From assembly GCA_964398815.1 (NCBI GenBank), contig CAYNNZ010000001.1, positions 1-51,070 on the forward strand: a stretch of DNA of 51,070 nt, in the 5' to 3' direction. The DNA comes from an uncultured Candidatus Saccharibacteria bacterium. GTDB lineage: Bacteria; Patescibacteriota; Minisyncoccia; Phycocordibacterales; Phycocordibacteraceae. Both the position numbers and the translations under genes were made by a program. Of the stretch, positions 1-37,648 are shown one piece after another (the first letter of the stretch is position 1; the number at the start of each line of letters is the position of its first letter). Under the pieces are notes generated by a model that saw nothing but the letters and a program-made list of their open reading frames with translations, was not told the DNA's origin and made no database searches.

Positions 1-2250
<2,250 letters not shown>

Positions 2251-4606: not shown

Positions 4607-5098
4607 TTATGCCTTCTTCTGTGCAACCTGATCGAGCGCAATCACGAGTCCCTGGATAGGGCTGTTGATGACGTTCACGAACATGCCGCGAAGCACCGGA
4701 ACGCTCGGAATCGTAGCGATAGCGTTCATCTGGGACGCGTCTGCGAATGCAGACTCCCAGATGCCACCGACGATCGAGAGAAGGTCCTTGTGCTTCTTGC
4801 CGAGCTCGTAGATTTCGCGGGGCGGTGCCGTCGCGTCATCCTTGCTCCATGCAAGTGCGATTTCGCCTGGCATCTCCGGAATCTCTCCCGTGTAGCCCTG
4901 CTCGCCGAGCACGCGCTTGATGAGGGTCTTCTTCGCTACGTAGTAGCCGATACCCTGCTCGCGCAGTGACTTGCGCATCTCGGAGGTGTCCTTCACGGAC
5001 ATCCCCTTGAAGTGCACGAAGACGACTGATGCGGCGTCTTTGACTGCGTCAGCAATCTTCGCCGTAATCTCTACCTTCTTCTGCTTTGTAATTGCCAT
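4607..5098 (-). CDS. rplJ: 50S ribosomal protein L10
   Basis: MAITKQKKVEITAKIADAVKDAASVVFVHFKGMSVKDTSEMRKSLRE... is typical of L10, and the gene sits directly upstream of rplL. Start is placed at the internal ATG (5098); the ORF-track start at 5137 adds 13 atypical residues. Confidence 0.9.
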   Translation of the reverse strand: MAITKQKKVEITAKIADAVKDAASVVFVHFKGMSVKDTSEMRKSLREQGIGYYVAKKTLIKRVLGEQGYTGEIPEMPGEIALAWSKDDATAPPREIYELGKKHKDLLSIVGGIWESAFADASQMNAIATIPSVPVLRGMFVNVINSPIQGLVIALDQVAQKKA

Positions 5099-5267
5099 AA
5101 TTTGTTTTCGTGTACGAAACGGAAACGGGTCCGCCACCGTAAGGTGGAGGACCGTTGGAGACAGTCGACCCCGAAATACCGCTTAGTGCGAGATTCGGTT
5201 TCGTCCCTCGGCAGGTGCTTATTAAATTCCCTCAATAGGAATTGAGCCTGCTGTCTTCGGTCCGTAC
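5099..5267 (-). promoter_or_regulatory. long structured 5' leader of rplJ (candidate L10 autoregulatory leader)
   Basis: About 170 nt separate the predicted promoter from the rplJ ATG. The leader has several hairpins (e.g. GGTCC-GCCACC-GTAA-GGTGG-A-GGACC). Many bacteria carry an L10(L12)4-binding leader at this position. Confidence 0.4.
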
Positions 5268-5302: not shown

Positions 5303-5422
5303 CCTGAGTCGTCCAAAAGCACTCAGGGCGCGGCGCAAGCGAGAAGCGTACCGAGCCGTATGTGCTGATACGGTGAGGGAGCATCGGAGCGCAGCAACAA
5401 AGCGATGAGAGATTTTGGAGAC

Positions 5423-5521
5423 TCAGGCCGTGGGGCCGGTGAAGTGAATGGCAAGTAATGCCCCGCACACGAGAATTACGAAACCACCCAAGAATCCGAG
5501 GAATTCGATGAAGTACTTCAT
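5423..5521 (-). CDS. candidate 32-aa hydrophobic micro-protein (MKYFIEFLGFLGGFVILVCGALLAIHFTGPTA)
   Basis: Its ATG overlaps the TGA of the upstream TPR gene in an ATGA arrangement (5518-5521). It encodes a single predicted TM helix and is below the ORF-track length cut-off. Confidence 0.35.
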   Translation of the reverse strand: MKYFIEFLGFLGGFVILVCGALLAIHFTGPTA

Positions 5522-6045
5522 TTGACGCCAGTGTGATGGATGAGGAAATTCTGGCGCGCCGTTTGGTAGATAGGATTGTTCGGTTCAGCGGCAACCGCAG
5601 CATCGTATGCCTTATGCGCAGTCGCGAAGGCTCCCATCACCTCCATCAAATGCCCCATGTTCATATAGGCAAGGCCGCGCTTCGGATCCTTCTCGATGGC
5701 GCGGGAGAGGTATTGATACGCACTTTTGCCATCGCCCAAGAGCTCGTATTCGCTCGCGATGCCAACGTATATATCGTAGTCACCTACCCCTCCTTTCCCC
5801 AGAAGTGCCTTCAATTTCGTTATCTCGTCGCGAACATCCGCCTCCTTCTGTGCACCGTCTTGATAGACCCCCTTCCACGTCCACGATGAGATATGGTCCT
5901 CCTCCGCGACTTTGTATCCGCTCCCGATTCCTGCGCCCGAGCCGAGCACGATGGGAAGAATAAGAAAGCCGGCGCAGCCGACGAGCACAACGATGAGTGC
6001 TGCTAATTGCAGCGGCTTCAACTTCGATACCGACGGCAGCTTCAT
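5518..6045 (-). CDS. membrane-anchored TPR-repeat protein
   Basis: N-terminal TM helix, then TPR-like repeats (GDGKSAYQYLSRAIEKDPKRGLAYMNMGHLMEVMGAFATAHKAYDAAVAAEPNNP). Confidence 0.85.
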   Translation of the reverse strand: MKLPSVSKLKPLQLAALIVVLVGCAGFLILPIVLGSGAGIGSGYKVAEEDHISSWTWKGVYQDGAQKEADVRDEITKLKALLGKGGVGDYDIYVGIASEYELLGDGKSAYQYLSRAIEKDPKRGLAYMNMGHLMEVMGAFATAHKAYDAAVAAEPNNPIYQTARQNFLIHHTGVK

Positions 6046-17158: not shown

Positions 17159-17365
17159 TTACGCGGCGAGGTACGGCATGAGTGCCATATAGCGGGCTCG
17201 CTTGATTGCGAGCGCTATCTCGCGCTGCTTGTCGCTTGAGATGCCGGTGCGCTTCTTGCCTAGGATTTTTGCGTGCGGATTAGTGAACTGGCGGAGGTAC
17301 GGGACATCCTTGTAGTCCACGAACTTCTTGTGTTCAATCTCCTCGCGTTCTGCTTGATATGCCAT
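17159..17365 (-). CDS. rpsR: 30S ribosomal protein S18
   Basis: FVDYKDVPYLRQFTNPHAKILGKKRTGISSDKQREIALAIKRARYMALMPY. Confidence 0.93.
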   Translation of the reverse strand: MAYQAEREEIEHKKFVDYKDVPYLRQFTNPHAKILGKKRTGISSDKQREIALAIKRARYMALMPYLAA

Positions 17366-17371
17366 GGTTGG

Positions 17372-17400
17372 AATCTATGTGAGTGATAAGAATTTGTCAA
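17372..17400 (-). promoter_or_regulatory. sigma70-type promoter ending 6 nt before the rpsR ATG (leaderless transcript predicted)
   Basis: Minus strand TTGACA (17400-17395), 17-nt spacer, TAGATT (17377-17372), then GGTTGG reverse-complemented (6 nt), then ATG (17365). Confidence 0.55.
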
Positions 17401-17502
17401 AAGGATGCAGATGCGAGGCACGGGAGGCTGATTTTCGTAAACGTACGAATAGTACGGTGGAGAAAATCAGCGGGACCCGTAACAAAGCAGGTGCGGCTTT
17501 TG
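17398..17502. ncRNA. conserved rod-like structured RNA element, copy A (unknown family; strand unresolved)
   Basis: Shares CAGATGCGAGGCACGGGA and GGGACCCGTAAC(A/G)AAGCAGGTG with copy B at 37114-37213. Three helices differ in sequence between the copies but stay fully paired. Confidence 0.6.
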
Positions 17503-17513
17503 GAAAATTCGGT

Positions 17514-17966
17514 TTAGAACGGGATGTCCTCCGGGTTTATCTCTTCGTCTGGGTACTGAATTTCGTCAGCGGATGATGGCATCGATGAACCCATGTCGTC
17601 GGCCGGTGCGCTCGAACGAGCACCACCTCCTTCTCCGCGGCCGCCATCTGCACCGAACTGGAACTGCTCCACGATGATTTCGGTGCGGTACTGCTTCGCG
17701 CCATCCTTTTCCCATGTGCGGGTCTGAAGGCGTCCCTCTACGAATATCGGGCGTCCCTTCTTCAGGTACTGACCGATAACCTCTGCCGTGCGGCCGAATG
17801 CCACGACGTTGTGGAACTCAGTCTGCTCCTGGCGAGCGCCGTTCTTATCCTTATAGGAACGATTAGTAGCAATGGCGAAATTCGCGACCTGCTGGCCAGA
17901 CGGAAGTGCTTTTACTTCCGGGTCGCGAGTCAGGTTTCCGTATAGCTCTACTTTGTTGATGTACAT
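17514..17966 (-). CDS. ssb: single-stranded DNA-binding protein
   Basis: OB fold (MYINKVELYGNLTRDPEVKALPSGQQVANFAIATNRSYKDKNG...), a Gly-rich linker, and the acidic tip ...EDIPF. Confidence 0.95.
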   Translation of the reverse strand: MYINKVELYGNLTRDPEVKALPSGQQVANFAIATNRSYKDKNGARQEQTEFHNVVAFGRTAEVIGQYLKKGRPIFVEGRLQTRTWEKDGAKQYRTEIIVEQFQFGADGGRGEGGGARSSAPADDMGSSMPSSADEIQYPDEEINPEDIPF

Positions 17967-23771: not shown

Positions 23772-23779
23772 AAACTCCT

Positions 23780-35849: not shown

Positions 35850-36342
35850 TCTTATTGCTGCAGTCAGTGCTCATACTCGAGCCATTGGAAAGGACAATGG
35901 CCTTATTTGGGACTTACCTGCTGACCTTGCACGCTTCCGTGCCCGCACCAAGAATCACCCCATCATCATGGGACGTAAGACGTGGGAATCACTCCCAGAA
36001 CATCGTCGTCCATTGCCTGCCCGCACGAACATCGTAGTCACACGGAATGCAGACTACGAGGCCAAGGGTGCGCACGTCGTGACCTCGATAGAAGACGCGC
36101 TCGACATCGCACGCAGCGCTCCGGGAGCTGAGGAAATTTACGTCATTGGCGGTGGAGAAATTTATGCACTCGCACTTCCCTACGCTGACGAGCTCGACCT
36201 AACGGAAGTAGATGAGGTGGTCGATGGCGACGCACGCTTCCCAGAATTTGAAGGCTTCACGGAAGTTTCGCGCGAGCCTGCAGAAGAGAATGGTATTAAT
36301 TACGACTTCGTCCGCTACGTCCGCGCTTCCAACGCTGCGTAA
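35842..36342 (+). CDS. folA: dihydrofolate reductase
   Basis: MISLIAAVSAHTRAIGKDNGLIWDLPADLARFRARTKNHPIIMGRKTWESLP...IYVIGGGEIY. The ATG overlaps the upstream stop (ATGATTAG). Confidence 0.93.
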   Translation: MISLIAAVSAHTRAIGKDNGLIWDLPADLARFRARTKNHPIIMGRKTWESLPEHRRPLPARTNIVVTRNADYEAKGAHVVTSIEDALDIARSAPGAEEIYVIGGGEIYALALPYADELDLTEVDEVVDGDARFPEFEGFTEVSREPAEENGINYDFVRYVRASNAA

Positions 36343-37042
36343 ATAGAATCGGCGCGAACAGGTCATCTTTCGGCGAAGCGGTAACAAGCGGTTCCTTGGT
36401 CTTCCGGTTACCGAACTCGACGTTCGCTCCGCGGATGATGGCGACAGGGGTCTGCTCGCTCCCTTCCCCCATTGCCACTACAGCACCTGCAGCAAGTCCG
36501 TCCGCGATGTTCGCGACCTCTACTTTGAACTCCCTCCCAAAGATGTCCTTCTTATGGCGATAGTCCTTGAGAGGGACGAACCCATCCCACGCAAGCGCGA
36601 AACCAATGGCACCGCGACGCATCGGAATTGAGGTTGAGTCGGTAATCAGAACAGCAATCTTTTTAACCCCATACGTTTTCTGAATCCATGAGCGCAGTCG
36701 CTTGGCGCTTTTCATTGGGTCCTTCGGGTAGAGAATGTAGTAGCCATTTCCATTGCTCTGGTCTATGCCTGCGGAGCCCGCCATCGCGCCCTTGGCGATG
36801 GTGAAGCGGTGACGATATTTCGCCTTCTCGAATTTTAGGTACCAATCCGCTTCCTGCTCGACCAGTCTGTCTTTATCCGTCCCCTCACCCGGCACTGTAT
36901 TGCCTTCGTCTATGGAGACGACTTTCGAGGAGATGGCGACAATATCTCCTTCTTTCAGTTTGAGGGTCGCTGCGAGAAGCGCATCGCGCAGAGTATCCTG
37001 TGGCGCGCGAAGCGCCCGCAAGCGGATGGGGATGAGTTCCAT
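36296..37042 (-). CDS. CofE-family gamma-glutamyl ligase homolog (candidate folylpolyglutamate/dihydrofolate synthase, FolC2-like)
   Basis: Similar to F420-0:gamma-glutamyl ligase (..GDIVAISSKVVSIDEG..., ..AGIDQSNGNGYYILYPKDP..., ..ITDSTSIPMRRGAIGFALAW..., ..ADGLAAGAVVAMGEGSEQTPVAIIRG). Embedded in the folate gene cluster. Confidence 0.8.
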   Translation of the reverse strand: MELIPIRLRALRAPQDTLRDALLAATLKLKEGDIVAISSKVVSIDEGNTVPGEGTDKDRLVEQEADWYLKFEKAKYRHRFTIAKGAMAGSAGIDQSNGNGYYILYPKDPMKSAKRLRSWIQKTYGVKKIAVLITDSTSIPMRRGAIGFALAWDGFVPLKDYRHKKDIFGREFKVEVANIADGLAAGAVVAMGEGSEQTPVAIIRGANVEFGNRKTKEPLVTASPKDDLFAPILFTQRWKRGRSGRSRN

Positions 37043-37058
37043 TCATGGACTCTAAATG

Positions 37059-37092
37059 AAAAACGCCCCGGCGCAATGCCGGGGTGCTTTTA
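37059..37092 (-). terminator. intrinsic terminator downstream of rplK (bidirectional shape)
   Basis: CCCCGGC-loop-GCCGGGG, followed by CGTTTTTCATTT on the minus strand. Confidence 0.75.
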
Positions 37093-37113
37093 TTTGCCTG
37101 AAGAAGCGAGGAA

Positions 37114-37213
37114 GAATCTTCAGATGCGAGGCACGGGATGTCTGGCGAAGTAGACGTATGGGCTATACGGCGGATGAGCCGGACGGGACCCGTAACGAAG
37201 CAGGTGGAGATTC
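37114..37213. ncRNA. conserved rod-like structured RNA element, copy B (unknown family; strand unresolved)
   Basis: See copy A (17398-17502). It lies between the rplK stop (12 nt away) and the terminator at 37059-37092. Confidence 0.6.
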
Positions 37214-37225
37214 TAGCCGCTTCGG

Positions 37226-37648
37226 TTATTTCTCGATACCGACGCCCATACTACGTGCAGTACCTTCGACAGTCTTCTCTGCTGCCTCAACAGAAGATGC
37301 GGAAAGATCCGGCATCTTCGTCTCTGCAATCTCGCGAATCTGCGCGCGGGAAAGCGTGCCGACTTTTGAATTCGGGGTCTTGCCCGAACCCTTCTCGACG
37401 CCGAGTGCCTTGAGGATAAGGCGGGACATCGGAGAGACCTTGTAGACGAGGCTGAAGGTGCGGTCCTCGTAGACGGTCATTTCGACCGGAACGATCGTGC
37501 CCATGCGGTCCTTGGTAGCCTCGTTGAACTTGTTCACGAAGTCGCCAATGTTGACGCCTGCCGGACCAAGCACGGTACCCACCGGCGGTGCCGGCGTTGC
37601 CTTCCCTGCTGGGATCTGGAGTTTGATTTTCTTAACTGCTTTAGCCAT
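37226..37648 (-). CDS. rplK: 50S ribosomal protein L11
   Basis: [47 protein letters not shown]... Confidence 0.96.

Follow-up and report, generated by a model that had tools for sequence, protein, structure and literature searches.

The stretch of DNA analyzed here comprises 51,070 nucleotides (nt) from an uncultured Candidatus Saccharibacteria bacterium and is referred to in its full length as the window. On its minus strand the order is ssb, copy A and rpsR, copy A being a rod-like foldback element that occupies the spacer between the two genes. A second full rod (copy B) is found behind rplK and a degenerate third member (copy C) in the first part of the window. Copies A, B and C are members of a dispersed hairpin repeat family of approximately 135 nt that belongs to Parcubacteria/Paceibacterota and was previously uncatalogued. 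By its SSB homologs the organism, too, is placed in Parcubacteria/Paceibacterota. The features concerned are the following, with genes taken from the list of open reading frames (ORFs):

5310-5421, plus strand: copy C, degenerate third member with partly decayed core blocks (covariance-model matches)
17159-17365, minus strand: rpsR
17372-17400, minus strand: promoter-like TTGACA-N17-TAGATT located 6 nt before the rpsR ATG, with the -35 box within an arm of copy A (promoter scan, 10/12 matches)
17390-17510, plus strand (the purine-rich folding strand): copy A, full rod in the ssb-rpsR spacer (covariance-model match 17394-17506)
17514-17516, minus strand: TAA stop codon of ssb, 3 nt from the outermost paired base of copy A
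17514-17966, minus strand: ssb
37064-37086, both strands: canonical bidirectional intrinsic terminator, downstream of copy B in the sense of the rplK mRNA (terminator scan)
37105-37221, plus strand: copy B, full rod between the rplK stop codon and the intrinsic terminator (model match 37108-37219)
37226-37228, minus strand: TAA stop codon of rplK, 4 nt from the outermost paired base of copy B
37226-37648, minus strand: rplK

An earlier note on this DNA had described two conserved blocks common to copies A and B, and both are specific to them. The window has exactly two occurrences of the block CAGATGCGAGGCACGGGA, at 17408 and 37121 and each on the plus strand, while shuffled sequences yield 0.06 matches even with three mismatches allowed; GGGACCCGTAACRAAGCAGGTG also occurs exactly twice (17472 and 37185) and never in shuffles. 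In the pairwise alignment of copies A and B the conserved blocks are split by wholly diverged stretches, and both sequences fold to the same rod. Folding reproduced all helices that had been listed, i.e., the outer, middle and apical ones as well as CAGAUGC/GCAGGUG with its GA/GG mismatch and ACGGG/CCCGU. Both rods are thus present but longer than the originally proposed 100 nt or so, extending over about 17390-17510 and 37105-37221. The distance of 11-12 nt to the stop codons of ssb and rplK was right for the shorter extent and becomes 3-4 nt with the additional outer pairs. On the plus strand copy A folds with -51.6 kcal/mol (z -7.2) and copy B with -51.8 kcal/mol (z -4.4), compared with -36.9 for the minus strand of the latter. 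With two covariance models of the family, R1 and R2, copy A scores 111.4 bits (E 1e-38) and 110.3 bits, copy B 97.0 and 98.9 bits. The assumption of two copies only has to be given up, since copy C is recognized by the same models with 31.5 and 37.2 bits (E about 1e-8 to 1e-9). It is not on a stop but 96 nt past the one that ends a TPR-like gene on the minus strand (5518-6045), and upstream of rplJ (4607-5137, minus strand). As the terminator at 37064-37086 lies beyond copy B, this copy is inside the rplK transcript, in the pyrimidine-rich sense.

The exact two-block pattern was run on species-representative genomes and gave 42 loci, about 34 of them true. All true ones are from Patescibacteria, with Paceibacterota, Wolfebacteria, Kaiserbacteria and Minisyncoccia as hosts of genome loci, and a scan of metagenomes with the pattern extended by four positions at its 3' end contributed 54 further loci. 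R1 and R2, which were built from these pattern-found sequences, recovered 105 hits (83 unique) in Patescibacteria genomes and metagenomes, including some that had escaped the pattern. In this way the homologs from the Candidate Phyla Radiation (CPR) that a covariance-model search had been predicted to find were indeed obtained. Several genomes contain two or three copies on separate contigs, and the density reaches 4-5 copies per 8 kb (locus L026) in comparison with three in the 51-kb window. The earlier note had left the element unclassified, which agrees with Rfam 15, where nothing matched copies A and B on either strand at gathering thresholds or at E<=10, nor did five further family members match on either strand at E<=1. 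Searches of the literature by taxon, keyword and sequence revealed no earlier description of the motif and no report of a small dispersed hairpin repeat in the tiny, repeat-poor CPR genomes. The densest region, L026 2321-6300 (L026 and L080 represent one genome), is rich in ribosomal-protein genes and has four copies in 4 kb, behind S2, L31 and L25. There an extra copy (L026 3186-3297) in the opposite, i.e., sense orientation occupies the upstream region of rpsB, 37-38 nt from either gene.

From base to tip the consensus begins with the outer inverted repeat, followed by a tandem G-A pair within CAGAUGC/GCAGAUG. Next come the internal loop GC-GAGGC-ACGGG / CCCGU-AACGAA-GC (loop GAGGC/AACGAA, helix ACGGG/CCCGU) and a GGGA bulge, and towards the tip a variable helix of ~8-10 bp, the loop AGRC/GRCGGAG and the hairpin CGUAC-loop-GUACG, so that the apical module reads AGRCGUAC-loop-GUACGRCGGAG. 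Three conserved modules are hence separated by variable helices. The outer inverted repeat is long and variable, often TAGAGC..CAAAAA / UUUUUG..GCUCUA, comprises 15-25 bp in nearly all copies and keeps its A...U polarity in about 72% of them. The element ends are terminal inverted repeats that enclose a short non-coding core: no conserved ORF spans the element, and the reading frame relative to the core differs between copies A and B.

That compensatory change in this element reflects a structural constraint had been proposed from two copies and is now seen on a broad basis. Among 83 distinct sequences 94% of the cells at paired positions can pair (73% in column shuffles, about 35% in slid controls), and 561 cells are doubly changed, a value reached in 0/500 shuffles (142 shuffled, 84-140 slid). 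Double changes affect 28/33 pairs in this set, and in the set of 36 sequences 22/33 pairs were compensated; the covariation score amounts to 0.579 against 0.176 for shuffles and 0.07-0.12 for slid controls. Even positions frozen by the search pattern covary once model hits join, with A-U to G-C changes in ACGGG/CCCGU and G-C to A-U changes in UGC/GCA. In several Parcubacterial groups the loop sequences have been retained, while every helix has changed. Orthologous sets behind S10, SSB, S21, L31, L21 and L32 have common flanks, outer helices and even downstream terminators, and their inner helix differs by fully compensated changes. Such compensation in place can be due either to purifying selection at each locus or to repeated re-templating by gene conversion.

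The folding signature belongs to the purine-rich strand (plus in the window), while the surrounding transcription units yield its complement, which represents a paradox. Averaged over 82 copies the fold energy is -63.4 kcal/mol for the purine-rich strand and -50.5 kcal/mol for the mRNA sense, the purine strand being the more stable one in 78/82. The earlier note had taken a single wobble pair as a hint of plus-strand folding, and this hint turned out to hold for the whole family: the helices comprise 161 G-U pairs on the purine strand versus 31 A-C, the latter corresponding to G-U in the mRNA sense. Columns 15/113 (UA 27, UG 32, CG 14) show the classic compensatory path via wobble; the mRNA sense would need a C-A mismatch here, with U-G almost absent. 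An alignment of the arms that is neutral with respect to register also favors the purine strand (55 vs 13), and the internal loops are 79% purine. The variable helix P4 has a weak wobble bias only (23 vs 14), the signal being concentrated at few columns. Promoter scans detected no conserved promoter ahead of the rod in the purine sense. A mutational bias as the cause of the G-U excess was rejected by reasoning, as deamination bias on the non-template and leading strand would push the opposite way. Avoidance of RNase III was considered as the cause of the orientation bias, and the longest uninterrupted helices (only 12.0 vs 9.4 bp) are not decisive in this respect.

The genomic context of 74 unique copies was counted with gene calls based on codon usage and checked on the window. 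The neighboring gene 3' of the purine-rich strand is encoded opposite to it in 69/74 copies, and in 66 of these 69 its stop codon is found -10 to +15 nt from the model end. Folding shows that pairing begins 0-2 nt from where the stop codon starts in 41/66 copies, so this codon is usually within the rod base. TGA stops are depleted (4/66 adjacent to elements, 87/631 in the background). The genes on both sides point the same way in 47 cases and converge in 14, and four copies are co-oriented with both neighbors; among copies with gene calls the arrangement of an antisense gene on the 5' side and a co-oriented one on the 3' side was found in zero cases. The identities of the stop-adjacent genes, assigned by Pfam plus matching C-termini, comprise about 27 ribosomal-protein genes and three for EF-Tu out of 66 (about 45%). 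Element-bearing upstream genes include those for S21, S10, S2, L11, L31, L32, L21, L7/L12, L10, L25, L28, S1, S9, EF-Tu and SSB; others encode DEAD-box helicases, AhpC, GreA, SecY and RNase J. A canonical terminator lies beyond the rod at rplK, S10 and L32, and in these loci the rod is therefore transcribed as the pyrimidine-rich complement in the 3' untranslated region (UTR) of the upstream gene.

Comparison with relatives reveals that copy A is inserted DNA and that the repeat family is dispersed, with orthologous sites that are filled in some genomes and empty in others; it is not a private two-copy RNA gene or leader. In five syntenic relatives (L001, L003, L005, L049 and L050) the ssb-rpsR spacer has 10-34 nt and is free of the element. 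The site is filled in the window, L051, L052 and L060, and the SSB proteins of these three relatives are closer to that of the window; where measured, the element-bearing spacer has 148-157 nt (window, L051, L052). In L051 the original TAAACT is now behind the insert and a new TAG stop has formed at the left junction, which would fit an insertion into the TA of the stop codon, and the flanks in L051 and the window agree with TA...TA. L001 has a private insertion behind a gene for 628 amino acids (aa), and the same site is empty in the window (23772-23779), L003, L005 and L049. The earlier note had opposed an RNA structure to a palindromic mobile repeat devoid of conservation at the RNA level: as far as the mobile repeat is concerned this second description applies, whereas RNA-level conservation is clearly there. 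A viral origin was rejected because the pattern is absent from viral contigs and blastn of copy A finds nothing in phage records, and a plasmid origin because the same search finds nothing in plasmid records. An extra gene in L049 (5963-7132) codes for a 389-aa protein with helix-turn-helix (HTH) and LAGLIDADG-like parts and separates the genes of an AI-2E transporter and methionyl-tRNA synthetase, which are next to each other in the window. A free-standing homing endonuclease is its probable identity; as a parent derived from an insertion sequence this LAGLIDADG/HTH protein was dismissed, matching inverted repeats being absent.

At the ssb-rpsR site the downstream gene appears to owe a promoter to the insertion, which either carried it in or generated it. 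A second promoter scan also picks up TTGACA-N17-TAGATT ahead of rpsR, and the ortholog of copy A in L051 has TTGACA-N17-TATATA at about 1125-1165. Such a good pair of -35 and -10 boxes is confined to copy A and its orthologs and is not a trait of the whole family. An outward promoter common to all members was rejected, as mean promoter scores barely differ between the orientations.

Among known systems the Correia elements of Neisseria (CREE/NEMIS) offer the closest parallels together with a hairpin repeat of Burkholderiales. A 106-nt Correia sequence is 99% identical to N. gonorrhoeae DNA, where it has at least 40 copies, and published variants of the Correia inverted repeat agree with it. 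Correia elements are likewise foldback repeats (105-155 nt) with terminal inverted repeats of the type TA(T)AG...CAAAAA. They are multi-copy and lie beside genes, hence are co-transcribed as hairpins, and they can supply promoters. With the Parcubacterial family they have in common the apical AGAC(A)GUAC-N5-GUACGGC as well as the blocks GCGAGGCA(A)CG and ACGAAGC. Unlike the Parcubacterial copies with their wholly compensated helices, Correia copies are near-identical within a genome, and the hosts belong to different phyla. To our knowledge no cognate transposase of Correia elements has been described, and we know of no report of a fixed orientation on stop codons or of a bias to ribosomal-protein genes among them. 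Promoters, cleavage by RNase III, inversion and insertion near genes are documented for Correia elements (PMC10969869; for PMC2649163 as far as its abstract goes), inversion in particular being on record in PMC10969869, which also describes that ERIC insertions at the 3' ends of genes alter mRNA stability.

The Correia core matches a hairpin repeat of Cupriavidus that occurs in 16 places of one replicon, and the same repeat family is present in Ralstonia, Eleftheria and Paraburkholderia. Copies of this Burkholderiales repeat in the four genera are located as follows:

L107: 1466-1588
L109: 1501-1623
L110: 1501-1605
L111: 694-783 and 1501-1617

R2 matches four Burkholderiales copies in register and on the expected strand with 20-28 bits (E 2.5e-7 to 1.7e-4, in small searches). 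The order of modules is the same, i.e., GC-NAGGC-RCG..., CGCAGACAGUAC-loop-GUACGGCAAGG and then ...CGCAACGACGC, the long outer inverted repeat contains CAAAA, and one Eleftheria copy overlaps the stop codon of an upstream DUF3325 gene in sense orientation. The Burkholderiales repeat differs in being GC-richer and in having no variable helix P4. Common to the Parcubacterial, Burkholderiales and Correia repeats are the loop GC-NAGGC-RCG / CG-YAACGA-GC, the apex AGAC(A)GUAC-N5-GUACGGC and the ends TA.AG...CAAAA. Kinship of the Parcubacterial family with the Burkholderiales repeats is likely, and kinship with Correia itself is no more than plausible.

Other systems are similar in part. Repeats of the ERIC, RUP, BOX and bcr1 type also form intergenic hairpins of about 100-150 nt that are transcribed within mRNAs, but they have no sequence similarity to the family described here, are limited to a genus or family and decay neutrally. 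The attC sites of integrons are imperfect hairpins (57-141 nt) right behind an ORF, in which the ORF-complementary strand is folded and functional and helix structure outlasts sequence. In contrast, the consensus of the Parcubacterial family is without R''/R' core sequences, no integrase or cassette array was noticed nearby (without a systematic search), and core genes in fixed synteny are involved. Intercistronic RNase III sites of phage T7 and REP sequences that stabilize mRNA 3' ends are irregular hairpins with conserved internal loops between cistrons or after the stops of highly expressed genes; these act in the mRNA sense, whereas the Parcubacterial folding signature is on the opposite strand.

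The explanation that we prefer, with chances that we judge to be about even, is a structured foldback repeat of mobile origin and Correia-like type, whose purine strand would carry a recognition fold and which settles on stop codons in one orientation and rides in 3' UTRs. In the same measure, neither more nor less, we hold that the family is comparable with MITEs (miniature inverted-repeat transposable elements), of mobile origin and a distant relative of Betaproteobacterial Correia-type elements. New copies arise at fresh sites on or beside a stop codon in nearly fixed orientation, mostly behind highly expressed genes, and are then carried in the 3' UTR or intercistronic transcript of the host gene as the pyrimidine-rich complement. 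The conserved purine-rich modules may constitute the recognition surface of a trans-acting protein, whether a host factor or an enzyme of mobilization. The folded purine-rich strand would be its target, in the simplest case in the form of single-stranded DNA. Integration might occur at TA and leave the TAA or TAG stop codon intact. The opposite orientation is presumed to be purged by selection, because a hyper-stable hairpin rich in the Shine-Dalgarno-like GGAG would then sit directly behind the stops of essential mRNAs. The tolerated orientation would give a weaker RNA hairpin, like Correia or ERIC in mRNAs, and could serve as 3'-end or intercistronic punctuation that affects processing and stability; in 3' UTRs the element probably has an effect on 3'-end formation or stability. 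At ssb-rpsR copy A seems to supply, in addition, the -35 box of a promoter of the leaderless type.

Several observations weigh against this mobile, Correia-like reading. R2 matches a Neisseria Correia copy only weakly (10.4 bits, E 0.12), the internal-loop module of Correia is apparently flipped relative to the apical one, and three annotated Eleftheria copies are co-oriented with their flanking genes, opposite to Parcubacteria. A target-site duplication of TA is inseparable from the palindromic ends, and the filled site of L001 is without a clean duplication. No transposase, recombinase or other mobilizing gene was noticed beside any copy in the gene lists of the loci, which were inspected without a systematic co-occurrence search. 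Recently active MITEs are usually near-identical, whereas copies within one genome are not near-identical here and their helices are completely different. The enrichment at ribosomal-protein genes exceeds what TA targeting alone explains. Finally, the compensation in place among orthologous copies behind S10, SSB, L31 and EF-Tu points to selection locus by locus, meaning a function for the host or gene conversion; a purely selfish element would not lead one to expect this.

This last point would fit a host-beneficial cis-acting RNA in the mRNA sense, i.e., a pyrimidine-rich post-stop hairpin that serves as 3'-UTR or intercistronic element, having multiplied by duplication and being maintained locus by locus through selection. 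Its role could be to block 3' exonucleases, to be processed by RNase III or RNase J, to bind a pyrimidine-binding protein or to sense terminating ribosomes, which must melt its base. The position of the rod ahead of canonical terminators implies that the mRNA strand is transcribed; the distance from the stop codon varies extremely little, about 45% of the upstream genes are for ribosomal proteins or EF-Tu, and with a mean of -50.5 kcal/mol the hairpin is still very stable. Yet the wobbles favor the other strand, so that a C-A mismatch would be a frequent intermediate (32/83 at one column) while U-G is almost absent, and the mismatches at helix ends would be pyrimidine-pyrimidine. Relatives with an empty site manage without the element. 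A coding extension or readthrough product does not come into question either, because copies A and B have different post-stop frames through the rod. We regard this RNA in the mRNA sense as a doubtful explanation. All structural asymmetries are on the purine strand, and they would be accounted for if it were antisense RNA that folds: a stable hairpin would stop or process antisense transcripts from bidirectional promoters that consist of a -10 box only, or yield a small protein-binding RNA. The leaderless promoter of the downstream gene could send polymerase backwards into the element, and most copies have an A-tract and a U-tract beside the rod, in line with the A...U polarity of the outer helix mentioned above. 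In favor of such promoters are -10 boxes about 7 nt before the ATG and Shine-Dalgarno sequences in only 10/47 window genes, and the 14 convergent cases place the purine-sense rod in the 3' UTR of the co-oriented gene. Nevertheless, no conserved promoter exists upstream in the purine sense, and a bidirectional terminator is interposed between the next promoter and the rod at rplK, S10 and L32; purine-sense RNA should be rare there, yet the copies are conserved. Moreover, the helix past the U-tract covaries, which is unexpected if transcripts end at the U-tract. Altogether an antisense RNA is unlikely.

Alternatively, the bottom strand relative to the upstream ORF might fold to an imperfect hairpin and be recognized as single-stranded DNA by a recombinase or an enzyme of the HUH type, which nicks single strands, in the manner of attC or REP/RAYT (repetitive extragenic palindrome and REP-associated tyrosine transposase). 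The position directly behind the stop of an ORF whose complementary strand folds is that of attC, and the length of 110-140 nt with conserved boxes and a variable center would fit as well. Mismatches of the G-T and purine-purine type are likewise the stable ones in hairpins of DNA. We nonetheless consider such a recombination site distinctly unlikely: the attC core sites RYYYAAC and GTTRRRY are absent, the flanking genes are core genes in conserved synteny instead of cassettes, and no integrase or HUH gene was noticed nearby, although this was no systematic search. In addition, if genes are co-oriented with replication, as GC skew suggests, the folded strand is the leading-strand template and rarely single-stranded. 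A classical regulatory leader or riboswitch of the downstream gene (rpsR in the case of copy A) or a mimic of a ribosomal-protein binding site would explain the conserved internal loops between variable helices and the closeness to ribosomal-protein genes, but it is highly improbable and largely refuted by the context statistics. Many copies precede a terminator or a convergent gene and not a regulated one, the genes on either side are of many kinds, Rfam has no matching family, and the orthologous operons of close relatives lack the element. These rival readings overlap with one another. Identities as SRP RNA (signal recognition particle), 6S RNA, kink-turn, loop E, hammerhead, twister or hairpin ribozyme or domain V of a group II intron were rejected by eye. 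An intrinsic terminator was discarded since the scan finds none in copy A or B and the helix continues and covaries past the U-run.

Returning to the mobile, Correia-like origin, a far-reaching extension of it is that the purine-rich modules are a strand-specific recognition structure across CPR Parcubacteria, Burkholderiales and Neisseria that is bound by one enzyme or host factor and that in Parcubacteria has become polar punctuation at highly expressed 3' ends, acting from the antisense strand. Action of this kind would be, for example, a barrier to antisense transcription from bidirectional leaderless promoters or a site in single-stranded DNA. We find this extension doubtful; if it were true, it would define a new kind of gene-end signal and provide a handle on what mobilizes Correia elements, for which we know of no identified agent. 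If only the kinship with Correia is true, comparison of CPR genomes of ~1 Mb with those of Neisseria and Burkholderiales could identify a common protein partner. Small dispersed hairpin repeats are known in many bacteria, and the Parcubacterial family is unusually constrained. It follows a striking positional rule: on the stop codon, antisense and behind genes of the translation apparatus. A solution of the strand paradox would bring to light either a so far unrecognized process, involving antisense or single-stranded DNA, or a novel principle of 3'-UTR hairpins.

The element also generates spurious calls of small ORFs. A publicly annotated 35-aa 'gene' at L001 4457-4564 is wholly within a copy and almost certainly not real, so masking is advisable in the annotation of CPR genomes.

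Some further features of the window may be mentioned. In the region 36296-37648 rplK is followed by the hairpin repeat, the terminator and an unrelated gene for 248 aa; rplA is not next, unlike in most bacteria, and rplJ-rplL are about 32 kb away from rplK. At one end of the window (1-2246, minus strand) there is a partial 23S rRNA in which model positions 1-1980 are spread over 2246 nt. The surplus of ~260 nt above expectation suggests an insertion or intervening sequence. Of the 47 genes called in the window only the ~10 referred to above have a Shine-Dalgarno-like motif, and many are preceded, ~6-8 nt ahead of the ATG, by a TAnnnT box, often with TG before it. This suggests that leaderless mRNAs or those with very short leaders, transcribed from promoters with a -10 box only, are widespread in this organism.

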